The notes below the pieces were generated by a model. The model was not told the origin of the DNA. It saw only the letters and a program-made list of their open reading frames with translations, and searched no databases. Below, piece after piece: positions 6,475-43,946 of a stretch of DNA of 64,000 bases (positions within the stretch are counted from its first letter, which is position 1; each line of letters opens with the position of its first letter). The stretch covers positions 7,931 to 71,930 of the forward strand of contig JAOAFQ010000098.1 of assembly GCA_026416195.1 (NCBI GenBank). Direction: 5' to 3'. The position numbers were made by a program, and so were the translations under genes. The DNA is from Candidatus Aminicenantes bacterium. Its GTDB lineage: Bacteria; Acidobacteriota; Aminicenantia; Aminicenantales; CALLJL01.

Positions 6475-8814
6475 TTAGTCGGCGGCGATTAATCGTTTGA
6501 TTTTGTCGGCACCAGCTAGGCCGCTGTTAAATAAATAGACGGTGACTGAGTCAAACAATCGCTGAAAGAAAGACCGCTGTAACTCCAATTTATCAGGTGA
6601 TAAGCCGAGAAGATGAGGATTAAAGAAGGGCTGATGCTTTCCCGACGCGATGGTTCGTTGAGCCCCGGGCGTTTCGCCTGACTCAAAAACCCTGAGGGCT
6701 TCTTCCTTGGTTAGCTCGATAAAATCTGGAGAAACAGCATCACTTCTTAGGATGAAAATCCATCGTAAAGTGTTTCGCCTGGGATAGCCTCCTTGGCCAT
6801 AGAGCCAATTAGGATCAAGCATAGCGTAGCCATTGGCCGAAGCCCGATAACAGAAAGGAGCGCCTCGATCCAGTCGGCAATCTTCGTCTCGCTGGCAATC
6901 GGCATCCTGACAGTCCTCTTTTTTGGTTACCACATTTTCGCATTTGCTTAAATCAAAAAGCGGGGCAAGGGCGGGATAAAGTTCCACGGCTGGCGTGGTT
7001 AGATAAAGCTTTCTTTCAACGCATTCAGCTACCGAGGTTTTTCCTGATAATCTAATGAAAATCAAATCATTAGCCTGAAGGCGGAAACGAGAGTCAGAAA
7101 GAAGCTCAAAGAAAAGTTCGGTTTTTCGTGTGCCCGGCGGCCCCACCAGAACCAAACCGTTGCCCTTATAATCGACGGACAGGCCTCGAAGAGCATTGGT
7201 CGTTAATTGACTTTGAGTAATCTCAATGACCATACCCAGGGCTAAGCTTCGGAGAGGCCCATAGAGATCAGTATTAATTAGAAAGGCTGTTCTCGTTTCG
7301 GGATTATAAAAGGCCCGACTCTCTCGCCCGGCAAGGCCATCAACCGCATAAATCACCCCGTGAGGTTCAATTTCAGCTTCAAGTTGGGCTGGAAACCAAT
7401 TCTCAATCCAAAAATCATTTAGATGAGAGACATTAGTTCTAAGCTGGATAATTACTCCGTTAATATTGGCGTTCCAAATATAAACTTTTTCTCGACTTAA
7501 ATGGCTTTCTACTTCAATTTGAAGGGCTTCCCGCCGTTTTAAATCAATCTCTGCCTCTATCGGTGGCGCTTTTTTCACTTTGGTTTGGACATTACTTAGA
7601 ATTACCCTTCTAGCCTTGGGCGATGGTTTAAGTTTAGCAATAGCCGCTATAATTCGATCCATGCCTTTTTCAAGATTTTCCATCGACGTGGCGTAGGAAA
7701 TACGAATATAATTATCAGCCCCGAAAGAATCCCCAGGGACAACAGCAACGCGAGCTTCCTTTAACAAATAATAGGCCAAGCCATATGAGTTGCGGATTTG
7801 CATTCCTTCAGCTTCCTTATCGTAGTAATAAGAAAAATTAGGAAAAAGGTAGAAAGCACCTTGGGGCTTGAAACAGGAAACATGAGGAATAGTTCTCAAT
7901 TTCATTAAGCAATAATTACGGCGCCGCTGAAATTCGGCCACCATCCGTTGAACTTCATACTGAGGTCCACGAAGTGCCTCAAGGCTGGCCATCTGGGAAA
8001 TTGAAGTTGGATTTGAAGTAGTATGGCTTTGAATCTTAGCCATAGCATTGATTATTTCCGCTGGTCCAAGGGTAAAGCCAATCCGCCAACCTGTCATGGA
8101 ATAGGTCTTAGAAACACCATTGACGATAATTGTTTTCTTTTTTATTTCCTCACCAAGGGAAGCAAAGCTGACAAATTCAAAATCTTCATAGACTAACTTG
8201 CCATAAATTTCATCAGCTATGACGTAAATATCTTCATGGCGAATAATTTCAGCTAAAGCCTCAAGCTGCTTGCGGTTATAAGCCGCACCTGTGGGATTGC
8301 TGGGATTATTTAGGATTAAAGCCTTGGTTGAAGGAGTTATCACCGCCTTTAATTCTTCTGGCGTCAAAACGAAACCATTCTCTTCTTTCGTCGAAACAAT
8401 AACCGGTTTTCCCTTAGCTAGCAAAACAGCTTGAGGATAAGTCACCCAATATGGGGCTGGGATGATCACCTCTTCCCCTTCATTGATTAAGGCCATAATC
8501 AGATGAAAAAGGGAGGCTTTCGCTCCACAGGAAACAATTACTTCATTAGGCTCATAATGAAGGCCATAATCATCTTTCATTCGCTTGATAATAGCTTTCT
8601 TTAAGGCTGGAATGCCTTCATTTTCAGTGTATTTAGTGAAATTTTCTTGAATAGCTCGAATGCCAGCCTGTTTGACGTTATCAGGGGTGGGAAAATCAGG
8701 TTCGCCTACGCTGAGATCAATAACATCAAGACCAGCAGCCTTCATGGCCTTGGCTTTAGCTGAAATCTTTAAAGTCGGGGAGGTACCGATTTGGATTGCT
8801 TTTTCCGAAATCAT
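6475..8814 (-). CDS. Fusion protein: class I aspartate aminotransferase (AspB-like) N-terminal domain joined to a C-terminal HprK-like P-loop kinase domain with a Cys cluster
   Basis: Residues 1 to about 395 align throughout with AspAT (VGEPDFPTP, NNPSNPTG, PLP-lysine context SKTYSMTGWRIGF, IRISYATS). The C-terminal half carries LRGLSVDYKGNGLVLVGPPGTRKTELFFELL...RLQANDLIFI. This follows the HprK C-domain pattern ([25 protein letters not shown]...LVADD). A Cys-rich stretch follows: CENVVTKKEDCQDADCQRDEDCRLDRGAPFC. Confidence 0.7.
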   Translation of the reverse strand: MISEKAIQIGTSPTLKISAKAKAMKAAGLDVIDLSVGEPDFPTPDNVKQAGIRAIQENFTKYTENEGIPALKKAIIKRMKDDYGLHYEPNEVIVSCGAKASLFHLIMALINEGEEVIIPAPYWVTYPQAVLLAKGKPVIVSTKEENGFVLTPEELKAVITPSTKALILNNPSNPTGAAYNRKQLEALAEIIRHEDIYVIADEIYGKLVYEDFEFVSFASLGEEIKKKTIIVNGVSKTYSMTGWRIGFTLGPAEIINAMAKIQSHTTSNPTSISQMASLEALRGPQYEVQRMVAEFQRRRNYCLMKLRTIPHVSCFKPQGAFYLFPNFSYYYDKEAEGMQIRNSYGLAYYLLKEARVAVVPGDSFGADNYIRISYATSMENLEKGMDRIIAAIAKLKPSPKARRVILSNVQTKVKKAPPIEAEIDLKRREALQIEVESHLSREKVYIWNANINGVIIQLRTNVSHLNDFWIENWFPAQLEAEIEPHGVIYAVDGLAGRESRAFYNPETRTAFLINTDLYGPLRSLALGMVIEITQSQLTTNALRGLSVDYKGNGLVLVGPPGTRKTELFFELLSDSRFRLQANDLIFIRLSGKTSVAECVERKLYLTTPAVELYPALAPLFDLSKCENVVTKKEDCQDADCQRDEDCRLDRGAPFCYRASANGYAMLDPNWLYGQGGYPRRNTLRWIFILRSDAVSPDFIELTKEEALRVFESGETPGAQRTIASGKHQPFFNPHLLGLSPDKLELQRSFFQRLFDSVTVYLFNSGLAGADKIKRLIAAD

Positions 8815-8831: not shown

Positions 8832-10247
8832 TCAGCTTTCTTGTTTTTCTGATTTGGCTTCAGGCGTCAGCTTATCACGAAGCCATTGTTGGAAGTCAAC
8901 CCCAGTAAGAGATTTTACCACTTCAGGCATTTGAGCTAGAATCTCAGCTACTTGAGCTGTAAGTCGGCTGGCTCCAATTCCTTTATCACTGCCGACAATA
9001 ATTATCTTCTCGATCTTCGAGAGAGGCTCAGCTACAGCTCGCGCGAGCTCAGGCAGCGTCTTAAAATACATTTCAAGTAGCGCGGCTTGATTGAGCCTTT
9101 CCCACGCTTTCGCCCGTTGAAGCATGGCCTCAGCTTCGGCCATTCCCTTAAGCCTTATTGTCTCAGCTTCAACTTGACCTTCTAGACGAAGAGCCTCGGT
9201 CTTGCCTTTAGCCTCCGCTTGAATTCGATATTCCTCAGCCTCAGCTTCGGCCATAATCTGATATTTACGAGCGTCGGCGGGCTTAATAACGCTGGCCTCT
9301 AATTCTTTTTGTCGTCTCATTATTTCAAGTTCTTCAATCTTAATCGCTTCTTGCTTCTCAATTTGCTTAACTTTGGCCTCTTCTCTTTTAATTTCTTGAG
9401 TGAGTTTATGGCGCTCCAATTCATAAGCAAAATCAGCCTGAGCCTTTTTCTGATTGACCATAACTTGGCTTTCAGCCCTCTTAGCTTCATTTTCCCATTG
9501 AGCTTTCGCAATCATGGCTTCAGCGGCCAGACGAGCAATTTCCCCTTCTTTTCGAGCTTCGGATGACTTGATGATAGCTTCCTTTTCCGTTTCAGCTTGG
9601 GCAATAGCTGCATCGCGCCGAGCCGCCGCAATCTGAGGTCGACTTAAAGCTTCGAGGTAGCCTTGGGGGTCGCTGATATCTTTAAGAGAAAAGGAGATCA
9701 TGACAAGGCCCATGCGACTGAAATCTTCTTTGATTGCTTCTCTGACTCGATTGGCAAATTCTTGACGGCCCCGATAAATTTCTTCCACCGTCATTCGACC
9801 GATTACTTCTCGCATTTTGCCTTCAAGAACAGTAGCCGCCACGTCGCGAATTCCTTCTCGCCCTTGGCCAAGAAATTGTTCAGCTGCTAACCTAATAGCC
9901 TCATCGCTGGTATCGATTCTTACTTGGGCCGTAGCTTCAGCCATAATTGGTACCCCATTATAAGTTAAGACTTCAGGAGTTTTAAGGTTCAAAGTAATCA
10001 CATCTACGGGCAGGGTATAAACACTTTCAATAAAGGGGATTACGAAGGTGCCGCCTCCAAGGCGATAGCGATAGCCTATTTTTAGGCGCCGACCATCAGG
10101 AAGAACGATGGTTCTTTTGCGTCCACCAGCCACAATTAAAATTTCATTTGGTCCGACTTTGCGGTATTGTTTTGCTAAAACTAGAATAATGAGGGCGACT
10201 AAGACAATAATTATTGCGGTTGGTATTATCCAAGATAAAGGCGTCAT
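8832..10247 (-). CDS. Flotillin (SPFH/band-7 family, FloT/YqiK-like)
   Basis: N-terminal TM helix, SPFH domain, long EA-rich coiled coil (AEAEAEE...). Start set at the ATG preceded by an AAGGAGG RBS (complement at 10254-10260). The track ORF extends 18 codons further upstream. Confidence 0.85.
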   Translation of the reverse strand: MTPLSWIIPTAIIIVLVALIILVLAKQYRKVGPNEILIVAGGRKRTIVLPDGRRLKIGYRYRLGGGTFVIPFIESVYTLPVDVITLNLKTPEVLTYNGVPIMAEATAQVRIDTSDEAIRLAAEQFLGQGREGIRDVAATVLEGKMREVIGRMTVEEIYRGRQEFANRVREAIKEDFSRMGLVMISFSLKDISDPQGYLEALSRPQIAAARRDAAIAQAETEKEAIIKSSEARKEGEIARLAAEAMIAKAQWENEAKRAESQVMVNQKKAQADFAYELERHKLTQEIKREEAKVKQIEKQEAIKIEELEIMRRQKELEASVIKPADARKYQIMAEAEAEEYRIQAEAKGKTEALRLEGQVEAETIRLKGMAEAEAMLQRAKAWERLNQAALLEMYFKTLPELARAVAEPLSKIEKIIIVGSDKGIGASRLTAQVAEILAQMPEVVKSLTGVDFQQWLRDKLTPEAKSEKQES

Positions 10248-10469
10248 CTCTAACCTCCTTCTGGCCATTCCTCTGGCCAGAAAAACTTCTCCCCTGGGCA
10301 AGGCCCTTAAGGGGAAATAAGATGGATTATAAAATGTTATTCTTACCCATAAACAAAGTCAAGAAAGTTGCCTATGGCCAAACCACTATCAAAACCTATG
10401 AAGTAAAATTGATTATAAAGTTTTTTCAATTCAAGTAAAGAAAGCAGACATATTGATTTTACCTAGAGA

Positions 10470-11138
10470 TCAGAAGCGAGGATTAAATTTATAAGGTGAA
10501 AGAAAATAACCGAAGAGATTAAAGGCTGATAAAAGAAATAAAGCCCAGGCCATAACGGTATAAATGACTTCAAAAGTCTTTGGTTTCATTACCTGCTGCA
10601 GTTTATGGCCAATCCAAGCGACTATCATATAATAAATAAGGCTACCGAGGCCGCAGGCCAAACCGAAAAAAAACGGCTTTATTCCGTGGTGGCTAATAAG
10701 TCCATGGGAAGTAACGATGGTGGCCACCGTTAGCCAAAATACGGGCAGAGTTGGACTCGAAATATACATGATAAAAGTGAAGAAAATAGGATGGCTTACT
10801 TTTTTATTTTTTTCTATCTCATTATTATTCTCCGGCAGGCCTAGACCAAGAACTCGATGAGTTCGAGCCAGATGCAAAAGATGGATACCAGCGACTACGA
10901 TAGCAGCGCTCCCAGCCAATCGAAGAATGAAAGACCAGCGGTCAAGGAAAGAAAGGAGAAGTGAAGTAAAGACAATGGCCAGATAACAATAGAGCGTATC
11001 AAGAATAGCTACTGTCAAACGAATTGAAACACTTTTCCAAAAGCCAAAACGAAGAGCCTGAGAAAGAGAATAAATATTGATTGGTCCCGGCGGAAGGGAT
11101 GCCATAAAGCCAATTACCAGCCCAATTAAAATAAACAT
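10470..11138 (-). CDS. LysE/RhtB family amino-acid exporter
   Basis: Six hydrophobic segments and an N-terminal SLPPGPINI motif typical of the LysE/RhtB family. Confidence 0.55.
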   Translation of the reverse strand: MFILIGLVIGFMASLPPGPINIYSLSQALRFGFWKSVSIRLTVAILDTLYCYLAIVFTSLLLSFLDRWSFILRLAGSAAIVVAGIHLLHLARTHRVLGLGLPENNNEIEKNKKVSHPIFFTFIMYISSPTLPVFWLTVATIVTSHGLISHHGIKPFFFGLACGLGSLIYYMIVAWIGHKLQQVMKPKTFEVIYTVMAWALFLLSAFNLFGYFLSPYKFNPRF

Positions 11139-21396: not shown

Positions 21397-23004
21397 TCAG
21401 AAAAGTAATTTTTCCTGATAGACGCCGAAAACCTCTTTGAGAGCATCAGCGATTTCGCCTAAGGTTGCCTGAGCCCTAACTGCTTCCATAATCAAGGGCA
21501 TTAGATTCTCCTTGGTCTTAGCCGCTTCTTTTAATTTTTCGAGGCACGTTAATACTTGTTTAAGCGACCTTCTTGCTTTTCTTTTTCTAAGTTTTTCGAT
21601 TTGCCTTTTTTCCACGGTAGGGGGAATGGAAAGAAGCTTAAAACGAGGCTTTTCCCCCTCCAGCCGAAACTCATTTACGCCAACAACAATTTGTTCTCCT
21701 TGGTCAATCAGTTTTTGCTGTTCGTACGCACTGGTCTCAATCTGATGCTGAATGAAACCATTTTCGATAGCTTCAAGCATGCCGCCCTGTTCTTCTATTT
21801 GCTTGATCAATTGCCACACCTTTTCTTCAATTACATTGGTCAGATGCTCGAGAAAATAACTTCCGCCTAATGGATCGACTGTATCGGCCACGCCACTTTC
21901 ATAAGCTATTATCTGCTGAGTTCTCAGGGCAATTCGGGCCGATTCTTCTGTGGGTAATGATAAAGCCTCATCTCGGGAATTAGTGTGGAGAGACTGAGTG
22001 CCACCAAGAACAGCTGCTAAGGCTTGAAGTGTTACTCGGATAACATTATTTTCAGGTTGATGAGCGGTAAGAGTACAGCCGCTGGTTTGCGTATGAAAGC
22101 GGAAGAGGCATGATTCTTCTTGGCTTGCCCCAAATTCGGTTTTCATGATTTTAGCCCAAAGACGGCGAGCAGCTCGAAATTTAGCAATTTCCTCAAAGAA
22201 GTGATTATGAGCGGCGAGGAAAAAAGAAAAGCGAGGAGCAAAAGAATCAACCTTTAAGCCTCTTTCAATGGCCGCGCGAACATAAGTAATGCCATTCGCC
22301 AAAGTAAAAGCTAGCTCTTGAATGGCATTGGCGCCAGCTTCACGAATATGATAACCACTAACAGAAATAGGATTCCAACGTGGTAAATAGGCCTGACAAA
22401 AGTCAATCAGATCAGTTACCAGACGAAGGGAAGGACGAGGCGGATAAATATAAGTTCCTCGGGCCACATATTCCTTAAGAATGTCATTCTGAGTTGTCCC
22501 AGCTAAGCAATTCCAGGCGAGACCCCTTTTTTCGGCCATCACTAGATACATGGCCAGAATGGGCGCTGCCGTGGCATTAATCGTCATCGAGACACTGACT
22601 CGATCGAGGGGAATGGAATCGAAAAGCTCTTCCATGTCCCACAGGCCATCAATAGCCACGCCAACCCGGCCGACTTCACCTTTCGCTTGAGGATGGTCAG
22701 AATCAAGACCAATTTGAGTCGGTAAATCAAAGGCAACACTTAAGCCAGTCTGGCCCTGAGCGAGTAAATAGCGAAAGCGACGGTTGGTTTCCCGAGCTGT
22801 CCCATAGCCAGCATATTGGCGCATTGTCCACAAGCGGCCTCGGTACATGGTTGGATAGATTCCCCGGGTAAAGGGAAAAGAGCCAGGTTGGCCAAGATCT
22901 CTTTCAAAATTAAAATTAGTTAAATGGTCTGGAGTATAAACCCGTTCAAGATTTATTCCCGATGGAGTTGAGAAAAAGGGTTTTCGTTCTTTTACCCCAG
23001 CCAT
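21397..23004 (-). CDS. Acyl-CoA (methylmalonyl-CoA-type) mutase, catalytic substrate-binding TIM-barrel subunit, lacking the B12-binding domain
   Basis: [53 protein letters not shown] matches MCM large-subunit/N-terminal-domain proteins. It is 535 aa with no C-terminal DXHXXG B12 domain. Confidence 0.8.
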
Positions 23005-23031
23005 CCTCCCACCTCACCCAGAAATTAAATC

Positions 23032-24327
<1,296 letters not shown>

Positions 24328-42000: not shown

Positions 42001-42471
42001 ATGAGAATTGCTAATTTATTGACAGAAGATATGATTATTTCTGAATTGAAAGGTAAAGATCGAGATGAGGTTCTGCGGGAAATGGTTGATTTCCTGAAGA
42101 ATAAAAAAAAGATTAATAATGCTTCGGAGCTTTTGGAAAGGCTAATTCAACGCGAAAATTTAGGTAGCACAGCAGTGGGCGATGGGATTGCAATTCCTCA
42201 CTGCAAAATTGCCGAATTGAGAAGTCCAATTCTCTTGTTAGCCATTTCAAAAAAAGGCGTGGCCTTTGGTTCAGCGAATGGCAAGCTAACTTCAATTTTT
42301 TTTATGCTTGTATCTCCTCAAGAAAACCCCAGTCTTAATCTTCAGATTCTAGCGGCAATTGCCCAGTTGATTCGTCAAGCTCCTTCGCTCCCCAAAAAGA
42401 TAATGGCCGCTAAAAGTGCTAGACGGATTTTAGAAATAATTCGGGAAGAAGAAGAAAAAATCTATGAATGA
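42001..42471 (+). CDS. ptsN: PTS IIA-Ntr (nitrogen regulatory EIIA)
   Basis: EIIA-fructose/Ntr fold with phospho-His in GDGIAIPH, 156 aa, conserved rpoN-hpf-ptsN order. Confidence 0.9.
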   Translation: MRIANLLTEDMIISELKGKDRDEVLREMVDFLKNKKKINNASELLERLIQRENLGSTAVGDGIAIPHCKIAELRSPILLLAISKKGVAFGSANGKLTSIFFMLVSPQENPSLNLQILAAIAQLIRQAPSLPKKIMAAKSARRILEIIREEEEKIYE

Positions 42472-42516: not shown

Positions 42517-43065
42517 ATGACTTCAAAAAAACTGGAAGCCAAAAATTCAAAAATTATTCCAGCTGGCCTTTTAGAAATAAATGGTCTTGGCGTTTTGATT
42601 TTAGGCGATAGTGGGGTTGGCAAAAGTGAAAGTGCCCTGGAGTTAATTACGAGGGGACATCGCTTTGTAGCCGATGATGTGGTTCTGGTTAAAAAAACCA
42701 GATCCGGGAAATTGAGGGGTCGAGCCCCTGAAGTCGCCCGCCACTTCATGGAGCTTCGAGGCCTTGGGTTGATCAATATCAAAGAAATTTTTGGGAAGAA
42801 AGCTATTTCTTACTCTGTTCCGATTGATCTGGCAATCTATTTAAAACGATGGCACCGTGGCGATGAATTTGACCGAATTGGTCTTGAGTTTCCTGAAGAT
42901 TATGAAATCCTTGGGGTAAAGATTCCTCAACTTATTATTCCGGTGGCTCCCGGTCGAAATATAGCCACTCTGATTGAAATAGCTTGCCGAGTTCACCGAC
43001 TGCGTCAGAAAGGTTATCTGGCTTCTCGGGAAATCGTTAAACGAATGGAAAAAAGGATGAAATAA
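42517..43065 (+). CDS. hprK: HPr kinase/phosphorylase, short form (C-terminal catalytic domain only)
   Basis: GVLILGDSGVGKSESALELITRGHRFVADDVVLV P-loop and capping motif. At 182 aa it lacks the N-terminal domain of the 310-aa Firmicutes enzyme. Confidence 0.85.
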   Translation: MTSKKLEAKNSKIIPAGLLEINGLGVLILGDSGVGKSESALELITRGHRFVADDVVLVKKTRSGKLRGRAPEVARHFMELRGLGLINIKEIFGKKAISYSVPIDLAIYLKRWHRGDEFDRIGLEFPEDYEILGVKIPQLIIPVAPGRNIATLIEIACRVHRLRQKGYLASREIVKRMEKRMK

Positions 43066-43067
43066 AG

Positions 43068-43946
43068 GTGACCAAAAAAAAGGATTTCCAGAAGGATAAT
43101 CGTTTTCTGATTATTACGGGTCTATCAGGTTCTGGTAAGACTGTCGTTAGCCATTTTCTTGAAGATTTAGGCTATTACTGTATTGATAATCTTCCGGCCA
43201 AACTTATTCCCAATTTTATTGATCTCTGGCTTAAAAAAGAGGTAGAAATTGATAAAGTCGCCTTAGTCGTTGATATGAGGGAGCCAGGGTTCCTTCATGA
43301 TTTTCCTCGAGTTTTTGCCGAGATTAAAACCAAAATTCCAGTTAAATTGATTTTTTTAGATGCTTCGGACGAAGCCCTAGTTAAAAGATTTAGTGAAAGT
43401 CGAAGACCTCACCCACTTTACCCCCGTAAGCCTGTTCTTGAAGCCATCAGTCTCGAAAGGAAAAGATTGGAAGCTATTAAGGCCATGGCTGATGAAATCA
43501 TCGATACTTCCCAAACAACTATTGCTCAACTCCGGGAATTAATGACTAAGAAGCTTTGGCCCCGGCCTCGAAAAAAATTGCAAATAGCGATTATCACTTT
43601 TGGCTACAAATATGGTCTTCCTTTAGAAGCCGACCTCATTTTTGATACGCGCTTCCTAGCCAATCCTTTTTATATTGACCGTTTTAGAAATAAAACGGGT
43701 AAAAGTCCTGAGGTAAGAAAGTTTGTGCTTAATTCCCCTGAAACCAAAGATTTTTTGGAAAAAATGACTGGATTTATTCTTTATCTTTTGCCTAAATTTA
43801 TTAACGAAGGTAAAAGTTATCTAACTATTGGCCTTGGTTGTACGGGTGGCAAACATCGTTCAGTGGTGATTGGTGAAGAGCTCAAGAATTTTTTGAAACA
43901 GCAAAATTATGATATAAAAATTATTCACCGCGATCTAGGGCGGTGA
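43068..43946 (+). CDS. rapZ: RNase adapter protein RapZ (YhbJ)
   Basis: LIITGLSGSGKTVVSHFLEDLGYYCIDNLP Walker A N-terminus, 292 aa, position after ptsN/hprK. Confidence 0.9.
   Translation: MTKKKDFQKDNRFLIITGLSGSGKTVVSHFLEDLGYYCIDNLPAKLIPNFIDLWLKKEVEIDKVALVVDMREPGFLHDFPRVFAEIKTKIPVKLIFLDASDEALVKRFSESRRPHPLYPRKPVLEAISLERKRLEAIKAMADEIIDTSQTTIAQLRELMTKKLWPRPRKKLQIAIITFGYKYGLPLEADLIFDTRFLANPFYIDRFRNKTGKSPEVRKFVLNSPETKDFLEKMTGFILYLLPKFINEGKSYLTIGLGCTGGKHRSVVIGEELKNFLKQQNYDIKIIHRDLGR

Follow-up and report, generated by a model that had tools for sequence, protein, structure and literature searches.

The window analysed here, a stretch of 64 kb from the Candidatus Aminicenantes contig JAOAFQ010000098.1, encodes a protein in which an aspartate aminotransferase is followed in the same reading frame by a second, unannotated domain. 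We use the label AT-X for the fused gene and its product, and X for the C-terminal domain. AT-X lies between a flotillin gene and gmhA, and X is best read as a truncated and remodelled relative of phosphoenolpyruvate carboxykinase (PEPCK). In public databases the protein is an 'aminotransferase' only: neither its 375-residue C-terminal domain nor the standalone relatives of that domain, which number in the hundreds, are annotated, and a full-text literature search found neither the X domain nor the aminotransferase-X fusion described. Within a known superfamily, both the family and the architecture are new. The features of the locus are collected in Table 1.

Table 1. Features of AT-X and of neighbouring or related genes in the window. 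PLP, pyridoxal phosphate.
Feature	AT-X residues	Position	Strand	Basis or remark
AT-X gene, complete (779 aa + stop)	1-779	6475..8814	-	ORF list; one-frame orthologues in 72/72 complete species loci
Class I-beta aspartate aminotransferase domain	1-395	7630..8814	-	PF00155 E 3e-81; structures; invariant catalytic residues
PLP-binding lysine	K236	8107-8109	-	coordinates checked
Linker KPSPKARRV, short	396-404	7603..7629	-	sole low-confidence segment between domains
X domain, truncated PEPCK fold (predicted)	405-779	6478..7602	-	corresponds approximately to E. coli Pck residues 94-445
Arginine at the PEPCK His232 position	R543	7186..7188	-	alignments
Modified P-loop GPPGTRKT	558-565	7120..7143	-	K564/T565 invariant; canonical Gly before Lys is Lys/Arg (73-sequence alignment)
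Kinase-2 motif (PEPCK D268-D269), first Asp replaced by Asn	N582-D583	7066..7071	-	alignments
Cys-rich insert C625-x9-C635-x4-C640-x5-C646-x8-C655	625-655	6850..6942	-	replaces PEPCK beta-hairpin
Flotillin (FloT-like SPFH) gene, 17 nt upstream of AT-X		8832..10301	-	Band_7 and Flot Pfam; NF058507 E 1e-112
Promoter-like sites upstream of flotillin		10334-10439		
LysE-family amino-acid exporter gene		10470-11138	-	
Methylmalonyl-CoA mutase (535 aa) and enolase (430 aa) genes		21397-24324	-	
ptsN (EIIA-Ntr)		42001-42471		
Genuine hprK (182 aa, short C-terminal-domain-only form)		42517-43065	+	Hpr_kinase_C E 5e-57
rapZ		43068-43946		

To find relatives, each GTDB species was represented by one genome in a pattern scan; a relative is encoded in 446 species, and we examined the best 80 loci. 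All 80 come from Aminicenantes-type metagenome-assembled genomes (MAGs), the closest two being 83% and 77% identical to the window protein in the C-terminal half. The aminotransferase and X share a single frame of about 780-816 amino acids in every one of the 72 complete genes, the exceptions among the 80 loci being contig-end truncations and two long-read frameshifts only. The fusion is also present outside the Aminicenantes: proteins of 778-786 amino acids are encoded in Zixibacteria, in the candidate division CSSED10-310 and in a Planctomycetota MAG, and a shorter form of 740 amino acids in a Polyangia MAG, all of them annotated simply as 'aminotransferase'. AT-X is therefore a real gene, conserved phylum-wide in the Aminicenantes, and it looks like a hallmark gene of this widespread uncultured phylum.

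That two genes were merged by an assembly error or a frameshift, a possibility which the original prediction had asked to be checked, has in its favour that the two halves are called as separate genes in some public contigs (loci L005 and L100). Both splits are long-read frameshifts: in L005 the C-terminus of the aminotransferase and the linker run on in the frame of the 'second' gene. We rejected a natural gene split in these two loci, and the one-frame orthologues, including those of other phyla, refute the merge. Long-read frameshifts split AT-X at L005 4724-7065 and L100 6001-8287 and also in L017 and L061; such splits inflate the apparent number of 'standalone' X proteins of the arginine type described below in protein databases.

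The N-terminal 395 residues are the AspB-type PLP aminotransferase with signature motifs that the original prediction had described. Aminotran_1_2 (PF00155) covers residues 30-388 with 273.8 bits against a cut-off of 19.7, and the nearest solved structures (E 1e-107 to 1e-90) are all class I-beta aspartate aminotransferases (AspATs): 6f35 (Sinorhizobium meliloti AatB), 1j32 (Phormidium AspAT), 5wmh (Arabidopsis prephenate/aspartate aminotransferase) and 1bkg (Thermus AspAT). AT-X aligns end to end with 1bkg, 6f35 and 5wmh over residues 1-395 and has every PLP- and dicarboxylate-binding residue; unlike AT-X, the solved and characterised enzymes all lack a C-terminal PEPCK-like domain. Six of these residues (K236, D201, Y204, N173, R244 and R371) do not vary among 73 full-length Aminicenantes orthologues. 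The distal-carboxylate lysine of I-beta enzymes, K99, which in our own reading of the alignment is the equivalent of Thermus K109, is present in 72. Since the PLP- and substrate-binding residues are invariant or nearly so, the aminotransferase half is intact and strongly constrained. The best NCBIfam matches are aspartate transaminases (NF004769, 453 bits; NF041091, 414 bits), both below their equivalog cut-offs, which for NF004769 is 617 bits. These scores do not fix the exact substrate range (aspartate versus prephenate or others), and specificity for aspartate is putative.

Sequence searches with the C-terminal half alone against Pfam, NCBIfam and PDB return only sub-threshold matches to HprK, PEPCK and P-loop families. 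PEPCK_ATP (PF01293) gives no Pfam match at all for the window protein, NF006821 stays below threshold (E 0.096), and when an X-family profile is compared with PDB the aminotransferase tail dominates, with HprK (1ko7) reaching E 6e-4 at best. The top 35 Foldseek matches of the X model are all ATP-dependent PEPCKs (E 1.6e-18 to 4e-15, TMq about 0.7), and the fold comparison scored 29.5 over 338 of 384 residues for ATP-dependent PEPCK (1ii2), 21.8 over 339 for GTP-PEPCK, 16.4 over 354 for pyrophosphate-dependent PEPCK and 12-13 over about 131-146 for HprK. In hhalign X aligns collinearly to the stretch 94-445 of E. coli Pck (E 2e-5) and to the PEPCK encoded beside AT-X in other Aminicenantes (E 3e-5). 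The standalone relatives of X match the PEPCK model NF006821 over nearly their full length (E 2e-15 to 3e-7). These fold searches, the hhalign comparisons and the matches of the standalone relatives lead us to conclude that X is a shortened two-lobe PEPCK paralogue and not an HPr kinase, a conclusion that draws on predicted structure and profiles.

Like ATP-dependent PEPCK (PckA; PF01293, NF006821 subfamily), X has a YG..(K/R)S loop, a Lys-Thr P-loop, a kinase-2 xD motif, ENV and an N(T/S)G C-terminal strand, in the same order. It differs in length, with about 375 residues against 530-610: measured on the 540-residue E. coli enzyme, approximately 90 N-terminal and 95 C-terminal residues are missing from it. 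Between the two domains only the linker is modelled with low confidence: the predicted local distance difference test falls below 50 at residues 1-9 of the C-half model and at residues 400-403 of the full-length model.

The original prediction had read this half as an HprK-like kinase domain and had quoted the string LRGLSVDYKGNGLVLVGPPGTRKTELFFELL...ANDLIFI as mirroring the HprK catalytic core residue by residue. The string is there, at residues 542-589, and the window does encode a genuine HprK; the correspondence fails beyond the P-loop. The two proteins share 14 identities in 48 residues (pairwise E 0.002; 51 columns by hhalign), confined to the segment from P-loop to Walker B (kinase-2), where the P-loop is followed by a helix and by a strand that closes with (A/N)DD-like residues; this is the core common to HprK and PEPCK. 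X scores 12.2 bits (E 0.13) against Hpr_kinase_C (PF07475), with a cut-off of 33.3, and 16.4 bits (E 0.004) against TIGR00679, with a cut-off of 240. These weak matches, the one to 1ko7 and faint ScmC/HprK-related matches among the standalone relatives speak for an HprK-type protein or peptide Ser/Thr kinase, which would act on the aminotransferase or on another protein. Against it, the PEPCK fold match is more than twice as strong and spans the whole domain, the PEPCK-specific N-lobe motifs, for which HprK has no counterpart, are the best-conserved part of X, and the equivalents of the catalytic His and Asp are altered. AT-X also lacks a phosphotransferase-system (PTS) or HPr context; the genuine hprK sits 34 kb away in a ptsN-hprK-rapZ cluster. 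We consider an HprK-type kinase very improbable, and a transaminase regulated by phosphorylation, which had also been proposed, finds no support.

The catalytic residues of PEPCK were traced through 73 full-length Aminicenantes AT-X proteins and 118 standalone X sequences, the E. coli Pck residue numbers having been verified on the actual sequence before equivalents were tabulated (Table 2).

Table 2. Equivalents of E. coli Pck catalytic residues (profile and manual alignment). The residues given for standalone X are each found in 115 or more of the 118 sequences.
E. coli Pck	Standalone X	AT-X
R65	R21 in SN..T.V.GR motif (115/118, manual equivalence)	Ser/Ala
Y207	Y	Y518 (73/73)
K212	K	Arg522 (72/73)
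H232 (Mn2+ ligand)	H	Arg543 (73/73)
S250	T	Pro/Lys
G253	G	Lys/Arg
K254	K	K564 (invariant)
T255	S/T	T565 (invariant)
D268	D	Asn (66/73); N582 in the window
D269	D	D/E583
K288	R	Pro (66/73)
R333	R	His/Tyr/Gln

From the PEPCK catalytic set (R65, Y207, K212/K213, H232, S250, K254, T255, D268, D269, K288 and R333) AT-X keeps, by this profile and manual mapping, only the equivalents of Y207, K254, T255 and D269. In all sequences in hand the His232 position is Arg in 123 of 125 aminotransferase-fused proteins and His in 139 of about 170 standalone ones. Conservation in the fused clade extends to E600-R601-K602, invariant or nearly so, as are all five cysteines of an insert that takes the place of a PEPCK hairpin and that most standalone and PEPCK-fused X domains lack. 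This Cys4 insert is a probable metal site; its spacing is CX9CX4CX5CX8C and not CX10CX4CX6CX10C as first reported. Mean identity to the window protein across the 73 orthologues is 58% for X and 76% for the aminotransferase. With this identity and many invariant positions, X is under clear purifying selection: it is remodelled, not decaying. Several fused lineages outside the Aminicenantes have no recognisable P-loop, with GAGRPT, GPKGMKRGS or HAPNVKKER in its place. Degenerate P-loops in these and in PEPCK-fused X domains argue for a shared function that would not need ATP phosphotransfer.

The X family is large: a library of 1.8 billion proteins yields 551 representative clusters at E<=1e-3, and at 90% identity the clusters number more than 650. 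Standalone X proteins of about 355-415 amino acids, all annotated 'hypothetical', occur in Chloroflexota/Dehalococcoidia, Thermodesulfobacteriota, Planctomycetota, Methanosarcinales and other archaea. They are 30-39% identical to X over its full length and share its N-lobe motifs (WNANINGxxxQLRTNxxHxxDFWxENW); they differ in being unfused, in retaining the His, DD, GTGKS and Arg residues, and in mostly lacking the Cys insert. Judged by these residues standalone X proteins are probably active enzymes, and the clade with the intact set may represent an undescribed small kinase or carboxykinase. One long-form homologue of the His type (P0276, 754 aa) carries an intein directly after its GTGKS P-loop. 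Inteins usually insert at functionally critical sites.

The neighbourhoods of standalone X genes show no single theme: UbiA/DnaJ/purC, leuD-X-leuB, gyrA, FMN reductase/X/2-oxoacid oxidoreductase, LOG/RHH/X/NfeD, a TIGR04076-like small ORF, and CBS/ABC genes in archaea. Small ORFs found upstream of standalone X genes have no homology to one another. In L003 (10001-11116) a standalone X gene lies between leuD and leuB in an ilv/leu operon, and in L089 (7017-8138) another lies just upstream of genes for a ferredoxin and a 2-oxoacid:ferredoxin oxidoreductase alpha subunit, both with an FMN-reductase-like gene near; these two contexts suggest a 2-oxoacid theme for the standalone clade.

The fused genes, in turn, are linked to PEPCK itself. 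Flanking sequence suffices in 70 Aminicenantes loci, and in 29 of them a gene for a PEPCK of 610 amino acids follows AT-X directly on the same strand, mostly after 1-70 nt. These enzymes (59-64% identical) keep all catalytic motifs and belong to the NF006821 subfamily, the same model that standalone X proteins match. The order in the divergent locus L100, where X is 40% identical, is SPFH protein, AT-X, PEPCK_ATP (613 aa, 4 nt downstream of the X stop codon) and nucleoside diphosphate kinase (NDK). In an archaeal-type protein of 899 amino acids (P0240) a complete PEPCK of the NF006821 subfamily (PF01293 E 2e-48) carries, fused to its N-terminus, an X domain that has GSSENDIAT in place of the P-loop. 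AT-X, the adjacency of PEPCK and P0240 together tie X by fusion or operon to two enzymes whose sole shared metabolite is oxaloacetate. A second archaeal-type gene (P0110, L098 1316-3082) encodes an X domain with a degenerate P-loop and a PEPCK N-lobe and then reaches a real stop codon; the remaining 104 nt beyond the stop contain no PEPCK continuation. An NDK gene follows AT-X in L099 (8587-9015) and AT-X plus PEPCK in L100 (10149-10562), two divergent lineages.

Our favoured reading, to which we assign a probability of roughly 45%, is that X is a remodelled PEPCK paralogue, likely without phosphotransfer activity, that regulates the aminotransferase or couples it at the node of oxaloacetate and phosphoenolpyruvate (PEP). 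The aminotransferase would be an active class I-beta enzyme converting aspartate and 2-oxoglutarate to oxaloacetate and glutamate, and back. X, held by its nine-residue linker, keeps the two-lobe PEPCK cleft and the phosphate-binding Lys-Thr pair, with the Mn2+ site and several residues of phosphoryl transfer and oxaloacetate binding swapped for another conserved and more cationic set, and has gained a probably metal-binding insert of four cysteines. We infer from these changes that X does not catalyse the carboxykinase reaction. It could bind a ligand that is phosphorylated or a dicarboxylate (a nucleotide, PEP or oxaloacetate), as a sensor or a holder, and regulate the aminotransferase accordingly; alternatively, it could dock the aminotransferase to the canonical PEPCK of the neighbouring gene in many relatives, or itself form a pair with that enzyme. 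Either way aspartate, oxaloacetate and PEP would be coupled. The architecture proposed by the original prediction, an aminotransferase with a P-loop domain of the PEPCK/HprK superfamily and a Cys cluster, holds up as real, conserved and unannotated, and its pointer towards keto-acid chemistry is on the right track; the plain 'kinase domain' label is doubtful, since the fused clade lacks most PEPCK catalytic residues.

Several observations weigh against this reading of X as a non-catalytic partner. The invariant Lys-Thr of the P-loop, D/E583 and E600-R601-K602 would also fit an active, metal-independent kinase. The full-length AlphaFold2 model (predicted template modelling score 0.50) gives no confident domain arrangement, the N-terminus of the aminotransferase being poorly modelled with fragment homologues and a shallow alignment. 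The residue equivalences were drawn from profiles and by manual alignment and not from structural superposition, with R333 offset by one residue and R65 placed by hand. By tblastn at E<=1e-8 PEPCK is absent beside AT-X, and from the available sequence, in the window and its two closest relatives. Finally, the contexts of standalone X (leu operon, NfeD, 2-oxoacid oxidoreductase) are heterogeneous.

AT-X could instead be bifunctional, with X an active mini-carboxykinase or mini-kinase in which Arg543, Arg522 and the extra Lys/Arg of the P-loop stand in for Mn2+. Such an enzyme could turn oxaloacetate directly into PEP, run from PEP and CO2 through oxaloacetate to aspartate, or decarboxylate oxaloacetate to pyruvate. 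Enzymes of consecutive steps are commonly fused, both PEPCK lobes are present in the X fold, Y518, K564, T565, D/E583 and E600-R601-K602 are invariant in the 73 orthologues, and the standalone relatives appear fully competent; in the window's lineage, which has no adjacent PEPCK, X could itself provide the activity. Yet 7 of the 12 PEPCK catalytic positions are altered, including the Mn ligand His232 and the equivalents of K288, R333 and R65, Lys or Arg at the Walker-A glycine position is non-canonical, and the P-loop is wholly missing in other aminotransferase-fused and PEPCK-fused lineages. Moreover, the canonical PEPCK that adjoins AT-X in 41% of loci would make X redundant. A bifunctional enzyme is thus, in our estimate, unlikely, though the strongest of the alternatives.

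The adjacency of the flotillin gene to AT-X is kept in all loci with upstream sequence (L007-L086), and L100 too has an SPFH gene upstream. Promoter-like sites are found upstream of flotillin only, and the two genes are probably co-transcribed. In Thermodesulfobacteriota an NfeD/S49 protease gene follows standalone X (L090-L092 and L095), a recurrent link of X with SPFH/NfeD genes. NfeD/S49 proteases are the usual partners of SPFH proteins.

This neighbourhood raises the possibility that X has an unrelated new function, sensing metabolites or redox state through its cysteines or serving as client or anchor of a flotillin scaffold, its connection with PEPCK being historical. An invariant four-cysteine insert, a flotillin gene always directly upstream, the NfeD protease beside standalone X in Thermodesulfobacteriota and the heterogeneity of standalone contexts are all consistent with it. 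PEPCK adjacency and X-PEPCK fusion recur independently, however, many family members have no Cys insert, and a membrane-binding feature is absent from X; we regard such a function as rather improbable. Similarly speculative is a wider view in which X and its standalone relatives form a new minimal PEPCK-fold class of about 360 residues. Its standalone members would be active, either as small carboxykinases or as kinases of 2-oxoacids. The fused Aminicenantes form would be either a metal-independent, Arg-based carboxykinase, and AT-X a one-polypeptide converter of aspartate and PEP, or a pseudoenzyme adaptor for an oxaloacetate-channelling AspAT-PEPCK metabolon, possibly on a flotillin scaffold.

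Under our favoured reading of X as a remodelled, regulatory PEPCK paralogue, AT-X would be a natural case in which the fold of a central-metabolism enzyme was taken over for a domain that is remodelled and possibly non-catalytic. The linkage of such a paralogue to real PEPCK yields a testable idea: that in these anaerobes amino-acid metabolism is joined to the PEP/oxaloacetate node.

A gene for a LysE-family amino-acid exporter lies upstream of flotillin and AT-X on the same strand, an arrangement that recurs only in the two nearest relatives, L007 and L008. Elsewhere in the window, genes for methylmalonyl-CoA mutase and enolase, of propionate and PEP metabolism, adjoin each other.

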